From Candidatus Altimarinota bacterium (GTDB lineage: Bacteria; Patescibacteriota; Gracilibacteria; BD1-5; UBA6164), in assembly GCA_034112165.1 (NCBI GenBank), contig JAWUVV010000052.1:1-53320 (forward strand): DNA of 53,320 nt. Direction: 5' to 3'. The translations under genes were made by a program, and so were the position numbers. Position 1 is the first letter of the stretch; each line of letters begins with the position of its first letter. Below the pieces are notes generated by a model. The model had not been told where the DNA came from. It did no database searches and worked only from the letters and a program-made list of their open reading frames with translations. Below, piece after piece: positions 9,966-46,958 of the stretch.

Positions 9966-12593
9966 TTATTTATTTTGAGAGAGTAAATCAAGGAGTTTAT
10001 CACTTGTAGTATAACGGATTTTTATATCACTAGGAAAGCTTGAGAGAAAGCGCTCTCACCACTTAGTGGTATAGATTCTATCATCTAAAAATACAACTAT
10101 TCCGGTATCTTTTTTCGTTCTAATAAGTCTTCAAAATCATTGCTTTAATTTCAATATTGATTTAGGGATTGCATACTCAGCAAAACTATCTTTATAGAGC
10201 TTACTACGAGCCATAAATATAGGATCGCTGGGTACCGCAAATGGTATCTTATGAATAATAAGATACTGCAAATCTTGCCCTGGAATATCAATACCCTCCC
10301 AAAAGGTGTCAGTTCATAGCATGATTGAATTACTTGGATTCGCTTTGAAAAATTCAATTTGCTTATGCTTACTCCCACTTATTCACTGCGCTAAGAGATG
10401 TATCTTGTCTCGCTCTAGCTCTATTTTCAGGCTACTATACACTTCTCTAATAGAGAAAAAAGCAGTAAATAATACGAGTGTTCGTCCTGAAACGATATGA
10501 AAAAACTTTCACAGAAATTCTGTCAGTTTTTGCATATTATTTTTTACACTTCCTAAATCTTGTGGAATGCATAAAAGAGCCTGCGTGCTATAATCAAAAT
10601 CTGAAGGAAGTACTATTTTTTCAAAGTCTTGCGTTTGAAGCGTAGCATCTATATAAGAAAAAGTATCTTCCATTTGCAAGGTAGCACTTGTGAGCACAAC
10701 ACTTTCAACGTTTGACCATAAATGACTTTTAAGAAATTCTCATGGGCGTAATAAGGTTGTGTGAATTTGAGTTCCATAATTATCATCGTGACTCATATAA
10801 TAGATGTTTTTCTCAAAATCTGGCTCTAGCAGAACATCCGTTAGAAATTGCCTAAAAAATACTATTTCTTGCACCTCAGAAGAGAAATGTAAGGCCTTCT
10901 TTTCTCAAAGTCCCGTAATGCCTTGACGCAGGGACTCTAAATTTTGAGATACTTTTTCTGCCAATACAGATACTTCTGGATGATTTGTAAAAAAGTCCTC
11001 TCATATAAGTAAATTTTTATATTTTGTATCGAGTTTAAACTTTGAAAATATTTCTCACTCAACAACAGAAAAAAGCTCAGCACTATCAAACAAGACAGAC
11101 TGTTTATAAATAGCTGATTTTTCTAGTGCTAGGCTATATTTTAATAACTTTTTTTCAATTTTCTCAAGAAGTTTCTGAAGCTTTTCGAAAGACATTATCT
11201 TTTTGAGAGACTGCGTTACTATATCTTCTAATGAATGTGCTTCATCCAAAATAAGGTTCTTCACTCCTCATAAGAGAGATCACTCAGAAACAATATCTTG
11301 AAATAAGATATGATTGTTTGTAATAATAATATCTGAATTCTTCGCTCTCTTTCGAGCTTTCAAAGCAAACTCAATTTCTTTATATGGATTAGCTTCATCA
11401 AATATGAAACTATTTCAGGCATGAATATCACTTATATAACTAAACTCTTCCCCATAAAACTGAAGTTCATCAAGTTCTCAAAATTCAGTTTTCATACTCC
11501 AAAGGAATATCTTTAAAACAAACGATATTTGCGTAGTAGACGTGATATGTCCAGAGTGAAGAAATTCTAAGAAACTAGATATTCACAAATAATTTCTTTT
11601 TCCCTTTAACTTTGTATAGGTAAATGCATGTGGAAAATGCTCACTGAGAAAATCTAGATCTTTATAATATATTTGATCTTGAAGGGCTTTTGTACTCGTA
11701 GATATATGAACTGGTTCTTTAAATACAAGCGCGTGTTTAATGGCTGGTAGGAGATACGCAAATGTCTTACCTATTCCAGTAGGAGCCTCTATCAATATCT
11801 TGCCTCACTTAGTAAGGTTTTTGTCGACTTTGTCTAACATAATCTTTTGGCTACTCCTGAGTTCAAAGTCAGGTATTTCTGTAAGAAATGACTCTATATC
11901 AATGACAGATTTACTCTCTATTTTGTCAATCTTGACTTGTAGGCTTTTCTGCAGGACCTTTTCATACGAGACTAAAATATCATCAAATGAGTCTATTTTA
12001 TCTGGTTTCTCTAAATACTCATCACGAAGTATCCTTACTCAACTATCTTGGCAAGAGCTAAGATAATGCCAAATAAGTTGGGTGTTATCATTATACACTC
12101 ATTGCAATTTTCAGATGAGTGCTTGGAATAATTTCCATGTTGCAATAGTATCATCAATCGCTCTGTGTGCATCAAGAAGTTCTATTCAAAATACTTCACA
12201 TAAATATCACAAATTTAAAGACTTTTCATCAGAACATAAAATATTAGCCAAAAAGAAAGTATCTATATATGGATTTTTTGAAGTATCAATATCGTGAGAT
12301 TCTAAAAAACGTACGTCAAAAGGAATATTATGACCAATAAGTGGAAATCACTCAATAAAATCTTGAACATCATCACTTATTTGATGAAACTTCTTTGCAT
12401 TCTTCACATCATCGTCAAATATGTTAGTAATTTGAGATATAAGGACTGGAATGTCTCTTTCAGGATTTACAAAACAATGAAACCTATCTACCTCACTAAA
12501 GTTCTCTCTATCGATTTTAATAAGAGCAAGCTCTATAATAGCGTCGTCTTTTGCTGACAATCAGGTTGTTTCTAAATCTAGTACTATAAACAT
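9966..12593 (-). CDS. dinG: DinG-family helicase with N-terminal DnaQ-like 3'-5' exonuclease domain (875 aa)
   Basis: Supporting motifs:
- Exo I: MFIVLDLETT[TGA=G]L;
- helicase motif I: EAPTGIGKTFAYLLP;
- motif V: FWEGIDIPG;
- motif VI: Q[TGA]F[TGA]RLIRT.
The frame was verified across four track fragments. Confidence 0.9.
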
Positions 12594-29610: not shown

Positions 29611-31002
29611 ATGAAAATAGCATTTTTTGGAACTCCAGAGTTTGCTTGAGAGATACTCTCATGAATCCTCTCCCTCAATCCCTCTCCAAGAGAGGGAAGT
29701 AGCTTCATAGATATAGCTCTTGTTGTTTCACAGCCAGATAAACCAATAGGAAGAAAGAGAGAACTCCTTCCAACTCCAGTCAGGCAAGTCTCTCTTGACG
29801 CTGGAATACAGGTGATGCAGCCAGATAAAATTAAGAGAAACACTCAGTTTCATGATAGTCTCAGAGATTTAAATTTAGACTTTATTGTCGTAGTAGCATA
29901 TTGAAAAATTATTCCACAAGCTATTTTAGATATTCCAAAGCATGGCTGTGTAAATATTCATGGGAGTATCCTTCCAAAATATCGAGGAGCAAGTCCAGTA
30001 CAGGCAGCAATAAAGTCTGGAGACAGTGAGACATGATTGACAACAATGTATATGTCTGCTGGCATGGATGAATGAGATATCCTTAAAATAGCCAGAGTTG
30101 AGATAGACAATATGGACACGAGTGAAGATATATTCAAAAAATTTGTACACATTGGACCTGAGCTCTTAGTAGAGACTCTCAGAGAAATTATGTCGGGAGA
30201 TTTACAGTGAACTCCTCAAGATAACTCTAAGTCTACAAAATGTGGAAAAATTTCTCGCGAAGATGGAGAAGTGTTTTTTGCTCAGCAGAGTTCAGGAGAA
30301 ATATATAATACTTTTAGAGCCTATACTCCTTGGCCTGGAATTTATACTTGGTATGATGGAAAGAGATTGGTGCTTGAAGAAATATCTTCTTACATAAAAC
30401 CTCACCTCTGAATTTCCTCTCCTCAAGGAGAGGAGGGCTACAGTATAAGGCAATGATATGCAGTCGTTCCTGAATATGTAAAAGAACTTTCTAAAAACCT
30501 GCGCCTAGATCAAACAGATTCTGAGGAAATAGCTTGGGAACTGCTGCGAAATAGAAAATTTCATAATTTAAATTTTCGTCGACAGCATGCTATTGGTAGA
30601 TACATTGCTGATTTTTATTGTGATGAAAAAAAGATTGTCATTGAATTAGATGGAAAAGTTCATGAAAATAGGAAAGAATATGATGAAATACGAGATGAAT
30701 CCATTTCTTCTCATAATATTCATGTTATTCGTATTCCCAATGAAGATATCGGAAAAATATATCAAATTATTTATACAAAATTATGTAGCCTCTCTCTCCT
30801 CTGAGGAGAGAGAATTCAAGAGTGAGGTTTTGTGTGAGAACTATGAGAATTCATCAAGCTCTCAAAAAACAGATATGGAATAATATGCGCTCACAATAAA
30901 ATTCTCGAGATTACGCGGGTAAAACTCGAGGGAAAGAAATCTATGGATGTTACGTCATTTGTGAATGGGAATAGAGAGGTAGTTTGATATTGTTTTCAAT
31001 AA
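29611..31002 (+). CDS. fmt: Methionyl-tRNA formyltransferase carrying two in-frame element insertions (463 aa vs ~310 typical)
   Basis: [38 protein letters not shown] and YTPWPGIYT motifs. The C-terminal domain resumes after the insert ([37 protein letters not shown]). Every codon from 29611 to 31002 was checked, and the only stop is TAA at 31000. Confidence 0.85.
29662..29703 (+). repeat. Solo GC-rich hairpin element (left-end type) in frame in the fmt N-terminus
   Basis: TGAATCCTCTCC...TCCCTCTC-CAA-GAGAGGGA. It encodes [12 protein letters not shown]. The GTP-to-QPD spacing is about 9 aa longer than in E. coli Fmt. Confidence 0.5.
30400..30827 (+). mobile_element. TIR/hairpin-bounded element carrying a DUF559 (Vsr-like PD-(D/E)XK) endonuclease module, in frame within fmt
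   Basis: - Left end: CCTCACCTCTGAATTTCCTCTCCTCAAGGAGAGGAGGGCT.
- Reverse complement of the right end: CCTCACTCTTGAATTCTCTCTCCTCAGAGGAGAGAGAGGCT, about 80% identical over ~40 nt; each end contains a hairpin.
- Interior: [73 protein letters not shown]. Confidence 0.6.
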
Positions 31003-31154
31003 AAAAAGAATCCCGAGGGCTGAAGAGGAACTTTTTAAGAAAGAACAGGAATGACATAAATATTCTACACCATACATATATATATTAGTCAAATATAAAT
31101 TGTGTTTGTAAAGCTTGAATTATGAGAGAATGTTGCTAGAATAGCGAATAATAA

Positions 31155-31249
31155 CTCTTACCTGAATCCTTACTCTTTACAAGAGCAAGGGGCTACAAAG
31201 TATACATACAGCCTCTTTCCCTTGAAAAGGGAGAGAATTCAAGAGAGAG
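31155..31249 (+). mobile_element. Miniature ORF-less copy of the same element (left and right ends separated by 6 nt)
   Basis: CTCTTACCTGAATCCTTACTCTTTACAAGAGCAAGGGGCTACAAAGTATA + ACATAC + AGCCTCTTTCCCTTGAAAAGGGAGAGAATTCAAGAGAGAG. It ends 3 nt before the ATG at 31253. Confidence 0.55.
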
Positions 31250-31252
31250 TTT

Positions 31253-44742: not shown

Positions 44743-45021
44743 ATGATAGAAATTTCAACATTAGAACTTCTGCAGCTTGTAGCTACCTTTTTCCTTATTG
44801 TCATCGGGACACTTCTTAGTCTTGCACTTTTGAAACTCAATAAAATTCTGAAAATGTGAGTTGAGCTCGTAGGCTACTATGAAAATATGAAACAATTAAT
44901 TATCTATTATTCTATGGTCCCGTATGTTATCAAGGATAAAATATTTGAATTTATAGCAAACCTCTCCGAATCCTCTCCTCAAGGAGAGGTGGAATCACAA
45001 GAAAGTTCTACTGAAAAGTAG
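44743..45021 (+). CDS. Small membrane protein (92 aa) with hairpin-element-derived C-terminus
   Basis: One TM helix (LVATFFLIVIGTLLSLALL). The C-terminal ..NLSESSPQGEVESQ.. is encoded by the repeat at 44961-44992. Confidence 0.45.
44961..44992 (+). repeat. Solo left-end-type hairpin element
   Basis: CCTCTCCGAATCCTCTCCTCAAGGAGAGGTGG. Compare the fmt element's left end, CCTCACCTCTGAATTTCCTCTCCTCAAGGAGAGGAGG. Confidence 0.5.
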
Positions 45022-45077: not shown

Positions 45078-46958
45078 ATGTCTCAAAAAATAATTACACT
45101 TTCGAAACAACTTGCCAACCAAATAGCAGCTGGGGAGGTTGTGGAGCGACCACTCTCAGTAGTGAAAGAGCTAGTAGAGAACTCACTTGATGCTGGAGCT
45201 ACAAAGCTCGAGATTTATTTAAAAAATGGTGGAATTGATGAGATTATCGTAAAAGATAATGGTCAGTGAATTCCTTGAGATCAATTGATCCTGGCTCTTG
45301 AGAAATACTCAACTTCAAAAATTCAAAGTATAGAGGACCTATATAAAGTGATGACTTTTGGTTTCAGGGGAGAGGCTCTTGCGAGTATTGCCTCAGTGAG
45401 TGAGTTTTCTATTAGTTCAAAAACTGCTGATTGTAAAAATGCCAAGCAAGTGATAAGTGAGGGAGGAGAAAATATTTCTGAGCAAATAATAGCCCATGAA
45501 ATAGGGACAAGCGTTAAAGTATCAAAATTGTTTTTTAATACTCCAGCAAGACTTGCGTACCTGAAAAAACCGAGAACGGAGTATCTTAAAATTCAAGAAT
45601 TTATTCAAAAAATAGCACTTATTTATCCAAATGTATGACTGAGCTTACATCATGATGATAAAGGAGTCTATAATTTCCCAGTAGGACAAAGTATCCAGGA
45701 ACGTATTTATGAGATATTTGGAGGAGAGTTTTCAGAAAATATGAGAATACTTTCTCACGAATTCTCATGAATAAAGGTTTCTTGATATATTACAGACCCT
45801 AAAATTTCTTTTAAAAATAAAAATCGGCAACTCTTATATGTAAATAAGAGAGTCATATGATCTCCTATGATTTCAAAGGCTATTTATGATGCGTATAATA
45901 GGTTTATTCCTCATGGAAACCAACCTGGATATATTCTCTCTATTGATATTGATCCAACTCAGGTTGATGTCAATGTGCATCCAAGAAAAATGGAAGTGAG
46001 ATTTGCGTGAGAAGCAACAATATTTCGATCTGTATATCATGGTATCAAGGATGAACTTGAAAGAGTGAGCTTAGTAGGTAATCCCCTAGTTTCTGTAAGC
46101 CCTCACTCTTGAATTCTCTCTCCCTTGGGGGAGAAAGAGGCTGCAAAAGAAACTCCCCTCTCCTCCAAAGGAGAGGGGCTGGGGGTGAGGGAGCAGTATT
46201 ATACAGGTTCATGAACTAAATTTAAAAATTATTCTCCCTATAAAAATACGGGTAGTAATCCATCGCAGGCTTCTATAGATTTTAGTAGAGAAATACTAGG
46301 GAATAACAATGCAGCTTCATCTCTCCTGGCAGGAGAGAATTGAGAGAGGTCTTATCAGGAAAACACTGGAAGTAATCTCTGAGACCTACGAGAGACACCA
46401 CTATGACGAATAGTAGGACAGGTTCATAACTCATACATAGTAGTTCAAACAGATACTGGTCTACAGATACTTGATCAACATGCTCTCGCAGAGCGCGTTA
46501 TATATGAGAAACTCGCAAATGCTTCTTATGCTCCACAAATCCAATGACTTCTATGAGGGATTGGAATGCATCTCATAGTAAATGAGTTAGAGGTGCTTGA
46601 AACATATTTGCAAGATTTTGAAAATATGGGTTTTGAAATCGAGATACTTTCAAATAGTAATATATTGATATCTAGTATTCCTGATTTTATGTCAGGGCAA
46701 AATATAGAAAAATCTTTTCAAAAAATACTATCAGATATCTCATGAGTGTGATCTACATGACTGGAAGAAATTCGTCATAAAATATGGGCGTATACCGCGT
46801 GTCGCTCAGCTGTTAAGTTTTGAGACTCACTGAGTATATTTGAAATAAATAAACTCTTACATGATGCAGCTATAGACTACAGCGCGACATGTCCACATGG
46901 ACGACCTGTTGTGTATGACATAAGCTTAGAAGAATTATTAGGAAAATATGAGAGGTAA
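45078..46958 (+). CDS. mutL: DNA mismatch repair protein MutL (626 aa) with element insertion in the linker
   Basis: [37 protein letters not shown], and the C-terminal [11 protein letters not shown] and ACRSAVKF[TGA]D motifs. Confidence 0.9.
46100..46191. mobile_element. Miniature hairpin element in frame in the mutL inter-domain linker
   Basis: CCCTCACTCTTGAATTCTCTCTCCCTTGGGGGAGAAAGAGGCT ... CCCCTCTCCTCCAAAGGAGAGGGGCTGGGGGTGAGGG. The first 23 nt are identical to the reverse complement of the fmt element's right end. It encodes [31 protein letters not shown]. Confidence 0.55.

Follow-up and report, generated by a model that had tools for sequence, protein, structure and literature searches.

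A DUF559 nuclease cassette with hairpin-bearing inverted repeats, read in frame within the fmt gene of a Gracilibacteria bacterium, and its short palindromic relatives in other genes

The DNA analysed here, called the window throughout, is a stretch of 53,320 nucleotides (nt) from Candidatus Altimarinota bacterium (Patescibacteriota; Gracilibacteria; contig JAWUVV010000052.1 of assembly GCA_034112165.1). Its fmt gene, which encodes methionyl-tRNA formyltransferase (Fmt), contains a cassette that codes for a DUF559 nuclease, is bounded by hairpin-bearing inverted repeats and is read in the frame of its host. The cassette is probably a selfish nuclease element with non-autonomous derivatives, adapted to life inside coding sequence. 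This reading is based on the presence of the element in unrelated host genes, its presence and absence at orthologous sites, a series of decay forms, tandem remnants, a nuclease under selection and conservation of the ends at the nucleotide level. A first-pass annotation, made from the letters of the window, had already described a selfish cassette residing as an in-frame internal domain of an otherwise intact fmt, and the empty, remnant and full alleles of fmt and the further host genes reported below support that description.

RESULTS AND DISCUSSION

The fmt gene is open through the cassette

The window uses genetic code 25, in which TGA is glycine, throughout, and its G+C content is 33%. 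With TGA as a sense codon, which the frame requires, fmt is open from 29611 to 30999 and stops at 31000–31002, confirming the uninterrupted frame of 463 codons proposed earlier. Translation from the ATG at 29611 with table 11 gave 13 in-frame TGAs and no TAA or TAG over the 463 codons. Because TGA encodes glycine, standard-code gene callers break up the genes of the window, and a standard-code open reading frame (ORF) finder reported no long ORF at 29.6–31.0 kb. Relatives in the databases are often translated with tryptophan at TGA (code 4), which affects identity values and structure prediction. Pfam analysis of the fmt product showed Formyl_trans_N at residues 1–190 and Formyl_trans_C split in two around DUF559; both Formyl_trans domains, together with the orthologous synteny described below, identify the host gene.

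The insert encodes a Vsr-like nuclease under purifying selection

DUF559 (PF04480) was matched at residues 290–382 of the fmt product with 95.1 bits against a gathering threshold of 20.6 (E 2.9e-27; model positions 3–95 of 109). The nuclease matched the PDB entry 3HRL with E 3e-11 as a single sequence and with E 3e-31 as a 40-sequence profile, and with the same profile the I-Bth0305I catalytic domain (3R3P), which comes from a homing endonuclease, was matched with E 3e-5. An AlphaFold2 model of the window's nuclease core had a predicted local distance difference test score (pLDDT) of 89 and a predicted template modelling (TM) score of 0.82. Foldseek searches with this model returned 3HRL and then 3R3P (probability 1.0 and TM 0.59/0.68 for 3R3P) as the best matches, together with the Vsr-like domains of AbaSI and PvuRts1I. 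The residues that are invariant in the family (W27, D52, F53, E63, H69, D76 and R79, numbered within the 115-aa piece) and the nearly invariant D65 are all present. The DUF559/Vsr-like PD-(D/E)XK module predicted in the insert is thus borne out by Pfam, by hidden Markov model (HMM) profiles and by structure comparison.

Pairwise Nei–Gojobori comparison of the nuclease core gave ratios of nonsynonymous to synonymous substitution (dN/dS) of 0.10–0.22 at dS 0.9–2.5, demonstrating that purifying selection maintains the nuclease. Between 30388 and 30850 there is no TAA or TAG, and of in-frame ATG, GTG and TTG codons there is a single one, the GTG at 30832, which lies at the very end of the insert on its right side. 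The insert had been described as lacking a start and a stop of its own; this holds for the stop and, apart from that GTG, for start-like codons. Since no in-frame start-like codon lies upstream of or within the core, yet the core is under purifying selection, the nuclease is most likely translated from the host frame.

The cassette is bounded by hairpin-bearing inverted repeats

The alignment of the left and right terminal inverted repeats (Table 1) showed 56 identical columns out of 72, with arms of 62–70 nt. Each arm contains a perfect polypyrimidine/polypurine (CT/GA) hairpin, so that the arms carry GC-rich palindromes; the window has six such CT/GA hairpins, all in coding sequence, and 20 shuffled sequences had none. 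The repeats and hairpins noted before are therefore real, although the arms measure about 60 nt and not 40 bp as then given, and the cassette lies where it had been placed (30400–30827) but extends somewhat further on both sides. In locus L027, where the host gene is a different one, the outer TCACACAAAA/TTTTGTGTGA still accompanies the element and is therefore part of it, which sets the boundaries at about 30390–30837. This entire segment is missing from the empty fmt allele L024. The same insert was found at the same fmt site in four independent assemblies (L001, L023, L026 and P0040), which rules out an assembly artefact. A GTAG or GCAG tetranucleotide (CTAC on the other arm) abuts the inner side of the hairpins at 30783–30790 and 30436–30443, and does so as well in the terminal-module alignment of 25 copies.

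Table 1. Features of the fmt cassette and of related hairpin sequences in the window
Feature	Position	Strand	Basis and remarks
Whole DUF559 cassette (~448 nt), TTACATAAAACCTCAC ... GTGAGGTTTTGTGTGA	30390–30837	+	Ends of L027 and empty allele L024; boundaries within a few nt
Left terminal inverted repeat	30387–30448	+	Hairpin 30415–30434, TCCTCTCCT-CA-AGGAGAGGA; encodes the left disordered linker
Right terminal inverted repeat	30771–30840	+	Hairpin 30791–30813, then GAATTCAAGAGTGAGGTTTT; encodes the right linker (..CSLSLLGGERIQEGGFV)
DUF559 nuclease core (Vsr-like, PD-(D/E)XK superfamily)	30457–30801	+	Pfam match nt 30478–30756; profile, fold, residues
fmt (methionyl-tRNA formyltransferase), host gene	29611–31002	+	463 codons under code 25; cassette in C-terminal domain; Pfam, synteny
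Nuclease-less double-hairpin derivative (~99 bp) in MutL	46097–46195	-	23-mer match, translation, fold; opposite orientation to fmt cassette
Diverged single terminal module in frame in MutL	46309–46354	+	Hairpin 46320–46338 and GAATTGAGAGAGG
In-frame solo CT/GA hairpin close to the fmt N-terminus	29665–29700	+	Hairpin scan, alignment
Solo CT/GA hairpin CCTCTCCT-CA-AGGAGAGG	44972–44989	+	In frame, near 3′ end of small ORF 44743–45021
Diverged intergenic double-hairpin copy	31150–31252	+	DNA fold z = -4.0; abuts ATG 31253 of next gene

The termini are 90–98% identical among copies whose cores are 65–80% identical. The left end is an unbiased measure of this conservation because it was not used for retrieval; it shows 90–98% identity where the cores are 73–80% identical. 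Since the conserved termini encode segments that are predicted to be disordered, the constraint must act on DNA or RNA, unless the copies homogenise their ends. An ATG in frame is present in L001, L002, L011 and L027 at 7 nt 3′ of the purine-rich hairpin arm (..GGAGAGG..), which is the start position of stand-alone DUF559 proteins; the codon at that position is ATA, TTA or TTT in the window, L023 and L026. The retained ATG and the Shine–Dalgarno-like GGAGAGG, which would be sequestered in the hairpin, suggest an ancestral free-standing form whose translation was coupled to that of the host.

[quoted passage not shown] Pfam detected DUF559 as the sole domain between the repeats and no transposase of the DDE, HUH, serine or tyrosine type there. 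Marks of an intein were likewise missing: the insert, which runs from ..K/PHLG to ..GGFV/GELG, has no Hint domain in Pfam, no Cys, Ser or Thr at its junctions and no terminal His-Asn, so that an intein is ruled out by the lack of a splicing domain and of junction residues. No Rfam intron or ribozyme family matched even at E <= 1–5, and a group I or group II intron or another self-splicing RNA was rejected on this basis. The first-pass statement that the insert is not an intein, an intron or a classical IS therefore stands.

As RNA, the ends of the cassette would form a long-range helix of about 65 nt that joins the flanks (z = -8.2), and one could imagine that this pairing leads to splicing, processing or bypass of the insert, so that Fmt is made without it. 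However, such end pairing follows automatically from inverted repeats. Moreover, the frame is maintained and stops are lacking in all copies, the start-less core is under purifying selection and so is read from the host frame, and the Rfam search gave no intron or ribozyme match. Removal at the RNA level fits these data poorly and is regarded as highly improbable.

The nuclease is predicted to fold as a separate domain within Fmt

The orthologue P0016, whose sequence has Trp where TGA should be Gly, was used to model the chimera. The result showed a well-predicted Fmt N-domain and strands of the C-domain flanking the insert on both sides. The nuclease formed a separate domain (residues 271–386, pLDDT ~90) between two linkers (257–269 and 387–398, pLDDT <50) that correspond to the translated hairpins; residues 199–234 were also poorly predicted. 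Foldseek aligned the P0016 model to Fmt structures across the insert. The cassette occupies a loop of the Fmt C-terminal domain. The placement raised in the first-pass annotation, an insert in a surface loop, is matched by the model, in which two disordered linkers tether the insert, as a domain of its own, between C-domain strands. According to the model, the palindrome arms would encode flexible linkers rich in Pro, Ser, Gly and Glu, and such self-supplied tethers are a plausible reason why the insert is tolerated: with them the nuclease would fold separately and the host protein would still work. The predicted junction peptides of the read-through chimera include ..SLSLLGGERIQEGGFVGELGEF...

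Empty, remnant and full alleles occur at the fmt site

The states of the fmt site were read from an alignment of 30 among the best 120 Fmt relatives, only four of which (of the 120) carry PF04480. The loop after GKRLVLEE is empty (13–17 residues) in P0021, P0025, P0029, P0031, P0034, P0035, P0036, P0038 and P0104, and the empty allele L024 reads ..CATTTTATAAGTGAAGATAAAATTCTGTCAGAAACTCC.. with no trace of the element. A single-palindrome remnant of 29 residues was found in L025/P0020, where a perfect palindrome of 66 bp consists of the left end, one hairpin and the right end, and double-hairpin remnants occur in P0024, P0041 and others. The full cassette is present in the window, P0016, P0017, P0018, P0040 and P0001/L001; by locus, L001, L023 and L026 are full. 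The order SHMT ... Glycos_transf_4 - fmt - ABC2 ... is conserved in L023, L024 and L026, which were compared with the window, and the fmt loci are therefore orthologous. Alignment of fmt orthologues thus yielded the empty sites that the first-pass annotation had expected from it, along with hairpin remnants and full cassettes, but not a target duplication.

For pairs among the window, L023 and L026, the cassette showed dS 0.9–1.2 and dN 0.12–0.13, and the N-terminal part of fmt showed dS 1.1–1.3 and dN 0.17–0.25. The similar dS values of cassette and fmt imply that the fmt copy is about as old as the split of the lineages and was co-inherited. It is not a recent insertion, and the cassette is at least as constrained as its host enzyme.

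Short and full copies lie in frame in many other genes of Gracilibacteria

The 23-mer CCTCACTCTTGAATTCTCTCTCC of the right end recurs exactly at 46101–46123 of the window, with no recurrence expected by chance. It lies in an ORF at 45078–46958 (+, 626 codons) that Pfam identifies as MutL. This derivative combines both terminal motifs with two hairpins, lacks the nuclease and is in frame in the linker between DNA_mis_repair and MutL_C. As a copy of the ends, it gave the first hint of a family that includes MITE-like members.

A scan of genomes, one per species, with the 20-mer GAGAGAATNCAAGAGTGAGG returned 20 loci, of which 18, short or full copies, belong to six Gracilibacteria metagenome-assembled genomes (MAGs). 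The matches in L007 (Proteobacteria) and L014 (Methanogaster) have no hairpins and were discarded as chance. The search for further copies that the first-pass annotation suggested thus found the ends again in many host genes, both within the window and among six MAGs. The short form has the layout AAAA-CCTCAC-(6–9 nt)-hairpin 1-spacer-GTAGCC-hairpin 2-GAATTCAAGAGTGAGG-TTTT and a length of about 95–110 bp. Nearly all 18 Gracilibacteria copies are embedded in long code-25 frames, which the element does not interrupt, and the right end is translated as ERIQEGG or EREFKSE, that is, in two of the three frames. The hosts of the short form, by Pfam, are DnaE, UvrB, an RNB-domain RNase, PriA, a photolyase-related protein (DPRP), an M3 peptidase, HflX, LeuRS (two copies) and QueH. 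L015 was rejected as an intragenic copy, as it lies upstream of the probable start codon of its host. An nhmmer profile showed that a right terminal module of about 46 nt is nearly invariant in 25 copies.

Full cassettes were also found outside fmt. The cassette of P0002/L002 is 81% identical over the aligned nuclease core and is read in the frame of a RecG-like helicase, with motif I (GDVGTGKT) on one side of it and motif Ia (MAPTEILARQH) on the other. L027 has a cassette at the same site of the RecG-like helicase; it belongs to the window's own end family, its left end being 98% identical to that of the window. In L011/P0136 the cassette is in frame in a cytidylyltransferase-like protein. 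An intermediate form was present in L012, in which the left end, a hairpin and the first ~30 nuclease residues (..EVPEYIKILAKKLRNTQTTTEEK) are followed directly by the right end, the product expected from an internal deletion of a full cassette. As far as the sequences indicate, the forms make up a decay series, from the full cassette through internal deletion and the double hairpin to the single palindrome. Extra tandem termini, left or right, lie beside full or short elements (L027, 2300–2420; L012, 900–1000; L018; L002, 800–880), suggesting successive insertions or abortive repair at one site. Viral contigs contained no copies of the terminal 20-mer and no close relatives of the nuclease, and a phage vehicle was rejected.

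In-frame DUF559 modules flanked by palindromes are widespread

An exhaustive HMMER search with the nuclease found 19,956 representatives (50% identity clusters) at E <= 1e-3. DUF559 is interior in about 40 of the best 150 proteins, which are 260–1200 aa long, and Pfam matched DUF559 in 30 of 30 of these long proteins. Other domains assigned to them by Pfam belong to RecG (with the DEAD domain split), RNase H, a cytidylyltransferase, TsaD, shikimate kinase, a PolyA_pol-family enzyme, a radical-SAM/TRAM enzyme, a Type ISP enzyme and many restriction–modification (RM) proteins of the Eco57I/MmeI type, the N6_N4 type and type I. Eleven sequences with internal DUF559, including some in the standard code, were read, and they showed palindrome-type peptides on both sides, such as SPLAPLPEGEG, PSPLVERGPGGEV, PLSSGRGAGGEG and SPSPAGEGLGVRA. 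Several DUF559 domains can occur in one frame, three in P0138 (377 aa) and two in P0137 (1214 aa).

A scan of metagenomes at the DNA level, independent of frame, showed that the relatives were embedded in long frames on both sides in 22 of the 27 closest cases versus one of the 53 more distant ones, the latter being mostly stand-alone ORFs of about 120 aa. By flanking sequence, the hosts include the RecG-like helicase site (L027, L028, L031 and L088), a RecQ-like helicase (L032) and HsdR-, HsdM- and HsdS-like proteins. From these sequences, the subfamily closest to the window copy appears to specialise in in-frame residence. In each family examined the core lies between palindrome-bearing inverted repeats, whose sequences differ. 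Hairpin repeats in a perfect inverted pair enclose a stand-alone DUF559 gene in L019, and another such gene, in L006, lies among hairpin repeats. Since repeats surround both embedded and stand-alone DUF559, the association of DUF559 with hairpin repeats is general, and judging from the sequences the phenomenon appears much wider than one gene or phylum.

These data bear on the possibility that the repeats of about 60 nt invert the segment between them and thereby switch the host gene between an off state (antisense, with stops) and an on state (sense read-through), as in phase variation. 'DUF559 domain-containing protein' is enriched (odds ratio 14), along with Eco57I-type methylases, among predicted targets of programmed inversion (PMC9881135), and many of the hosts found here are RM genes. 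However, flanking repeats alone predict that enrichment. At the DNA level all embedded copies are in the sense orientation (four in fmt, five at the RecG-like site and 22 of the 27 closest metagenomic relatives), and at most one of these 27 could represent an inverted state. No recombinase is linked to the copies, and the hosts include housekeeping genes. An invertible switch thus also fits the data poorly and is very unlikely. The repeats that habitually flank DUF559 could mimic the published inversion signal without any inversion.

The list of hosts bears in addition on whether a formerly mobile cassette has become a functional module kept by selection on the host, for example as an extra nuclease in RM or repair enzymes. 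The purifying selection on the fmt copy is as strong as that on fmt, with which it was co-inherited. Having no start or stop of its own, the cassette exists only as a fusion, and many of the hosts are DNA enzymes (RecG, MutL, RNase H, HsdR/M/S-like and Eco57I-type proteins). On the other hand, a DNA nuclease would be useless to Fmt, cytidylyltransferase, TsaD, shikimate kinase or radical-SAM hosts, and most fmt orthologues have no cassette or only remnants of it. Exaptation would also leave the nucleotide-level conservation of termini that encode disordered linkers unexplained, and we consider it unlikely.

The cassette combines features of homing endonuclease genes and of in-frame palindromic elements

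Dassa et al. (2009; PMC2677866) put forward the Vsr-like nucleases as a family of homing endonucleases; they described them in introns, with split inteins and as stand-alone inserts and noted hairpins upstream of the endonuclease ORF. The Vsr-like/EDxHD homing endonucleases (I-Bth0305I, 3R3P) share the nuclease fold and detectable homology with the cassette. Like it, they are selfish nucleases that invade conserved genes, those of DNA metabolism above all, and stand-alone inserts without an intron or intein are known. The first-pass statement that no mobility mechanism is described for DUF559 thus needs qualifying, as related nucleases belong to a described homing-endonuclease family (PMC2677866; 3R3P). 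Unlike the cassette, however, those enzymes are encoded by free-standing ORFs with their own start and stop, located in group I introns, between the halves of split inteins or so as to split the host gene into two ORFs, and they are larger, with separate DNA-binding regions. The cassette is start- and stop-less and read through with the host, and it has long inverted repeats and MITE-like derivatives. Inteins are comparable as in-frame selfish inserts in conserved genes that often include a domain of the homing endonuclease type and are made together with the host protein, but the cassette has no Hint domain and would stay in the mature protein.

The short forms behave like Rickettsia palindromic elements (RPEs; PMC10969869), palindromes of about 100–150 bp that lie in frame in many unrelated housekeeping genes and add a tolerated peptide. 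Most of the 18 Gracilibacteria copies, and the copy in MutL, are indeed short palindromes in frame in unrelated ORFs. RPEs, in contrast, have no known coding partner or mobility enzyme, whereas the short forms share their termini with a nuclease element and L012 is visibly derived from it. RPEs also differ in host phylum, sequence and base composition; the likeness is one of behaviour. Repetitive extragenic palindromic (REP) sequences and their doublets (REPINs), with the REP-associated tyrosine transposase (RAYT), offer another parallel: a single protein gene flanked by inverted GC-rich hairpins, many dispersed hairpin doublets and GTAG-like tags. REPs, however, lie outside genes and are paired with an HUH Y1 transposase, whereas the copies of the cassette family are mostly intragenic and in frame and are paired with a PD-(D/E)XK nuclease.

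The only Rfam family matched repeatedly, below threshold, was whalefall-1 (RF01762), an orphan 'ncRNA' with two stem-loops known only from whale-fall metagenomes (PMC2864571). Its hairpin UCuCuCC-UuGG-GGaGaGA and 3′ tail AGgGuGAGGAC resemble the terminal module TCTCTCTCC-TCTGA-GGAGAGAGA...AGAGTGAGG, and the four matches (30790–30829, +; 30398–30436, -; 46099–46137, -; 29665–29700, -) coincide exactly with element ends or solo hairpins. Whalefall-1 is annotated as a non-coding RNA, though, and the second stem-loop of its model is absent from the element. Membership was rejected, the scores of 18–22 bits (best 21.7) standing against a gathering threshold of 37 and none of 19 related loci reaching it; the relation is one of resemblance only. 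Whalefall-1 may be an element terminus instead of an RNA gene.

Searches of the open-access literature found no account of a DUF559 cassette with hairpin-bearing inverted repeats read in frame, nor of MITE-like derivatives of one. The element can be described as a hybrid of two kinds, the homing endonuclease gene and the in-frame palindromic element, and there is a substantial chance that the cassette family deserves a class of its own.

A proposed mechanism and the points that weigh against it

If the cassette is a selfish nuclease element, the nuclease, produced as a passenger within its host protein, would nick or cut vacant target sites or the hairpin termini of the element itself, and break repair would place copies of the cassette, or of its short derivatives, where the cut was made. 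Spread would be homing-like at recurrent sites, such as the RecG loop between motifs I and Ia. Short forms would spread elsewhere in a MITE-like manner, their copying being primed from or templated by the hairpin termini. Only frame-preserving insertions in tolerant loops would survive. After fixation, internal deletion between the repeats would remove the core and leave first double-hairpin and then single-palindrome remnants, a decay that would follow the known invasion–decay–loss cycle of homing endonuclease genes. The copy in the window would be an old, vertically inherited and still intact resident.

Several points count against this reading. Nuclease cleavage, the target site and transposition or homing are proposed from sequence, as is translation of the insert as part of Fmt. 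With about 115 aa of catalytic domain and, unlike I-Bth0305I, no obvious sequence-specific DNA-binding module, the nuclease differs from a typical homing enzyme of the group, and in the HMM alignment 3R3P has N and W in the D65 and H69 columns, so that the correspondence of the catalytic sets is not clean. The lengths of CCTCAC...GTGAGG elements fall into all three classes modulo 3 with no fixed length rule, and because of this variation between the end motifs the termini are placed approximately. Gene conversion among copies could account in part for the conservation of the ends. The fmt copy has diverged in step with fmt, with no sign of recent movement by this copy. A neighbour-joining tree of the host part of Fmt was star-like, with the full alleles not monophyletic and the empty clade nested among filled ones; given this poor resolution, repeated invasion and repeated precise loss are inseparable in it. 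No target-site duplication was recognisable between the filled alleles and empty L024, the flanks of which are much diverged (dS ~1). Finally, a PD-(D/E)XK nuclease alone is incapable of DNA integration and strand transfer.

The last of these points, which is established knowledge, speaks for a non-autonomous transposon whose MITE- or IS-like ends are moved in trans by an unlinked transposase, with DUF559 as a passenger or an accessory, like TnsA in Tn7. The long repeats and the many short derivatives at unrelated sites would suit such a transposon, and the GTAG/CTAC tags by the hairpins recall the REP sequences moved by RAYT transposases (PMC3733652). On the other side, no reading frame except DUF559 lies between the repeats of any family examined, and DUF559 stays with repeats that are unrelated in sequence between families, suggesting that nuclease and ends co-evolve. 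No transposase gene was seen beside any copy, the missing target-site duplication tells against this explanation too, and the reuse of sites in the RecG-like helicase and fmt is more typical of homing. A transposon with DUF559 as cargo is therefore judged improbable, and a selfish nuclease cassette remains the reading we favour.

A broader proposal, which we advance tentatively and as possible rather than probable, is that DUF559 with hairpin-bearing inverted repeats forms a distinct and widespread class of mobile element. Such elements would have no translation signals of their own, bring their own linkers, be expressed as passenger domains, move by the nuclease and host repair only, and decay to in-frame palindromic inserts and, by analogy, to RPE-like elements elsewhere. 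If this were true, the very large DUF559 family would serve mainly to make elements mobile, and the orphan whalefall-1 'RNA' would represent the terminus of an element.

A link with a mobile architecture would give a concrete and testable role to DUF559, which is among the largest nuclease families of unknown function. It also supplies a candidate enzyme for in-frame palindromic elements, whose movement has lacked an explanation since RPEs were described; the short forms in Gracilibacteria have an identifiable coding parent. Nuclease genes in essential genes are known to be tolerated through self-splicing (inteins, introns) or gene fracture, and retention of the insert on its own disordered linkers would be a third way. 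In practice, such inserts inflate or split domain calls in the annotation of candidate phyla radiation (CPR) and RM genes, and they can mimic programmed-inversion signatures. They also mark insertion-tolerant loops and may yield compact nucleases with new specificities.

Other hairpin sequences in and around fmt

The intergenic double-hairpin copy 3′ of fmt (Table 1) is conserved in the orthologous locus L023 at 11750–11853, and it may serve as a ribosome-binding site or a regulatory hairpin for the next gene. The solo hairpin near the N-terminus of fmt is missing from most fmt orthologues and was found in P0019, P0032 and P0033. At least three loops of fmt are prone to insertion (after ILSGIL, after QPEKIKKN and after GKRLVLEE). 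Another repeat family, NPPLSDYNSVPLNKGEPWTQWNRGI-like and likewise in frame, occurs in fmt of P0033, P0027 and P0073, in the same loops and in others, and from their sequences several unrelated in-frame repeat families appear to share these genomes.

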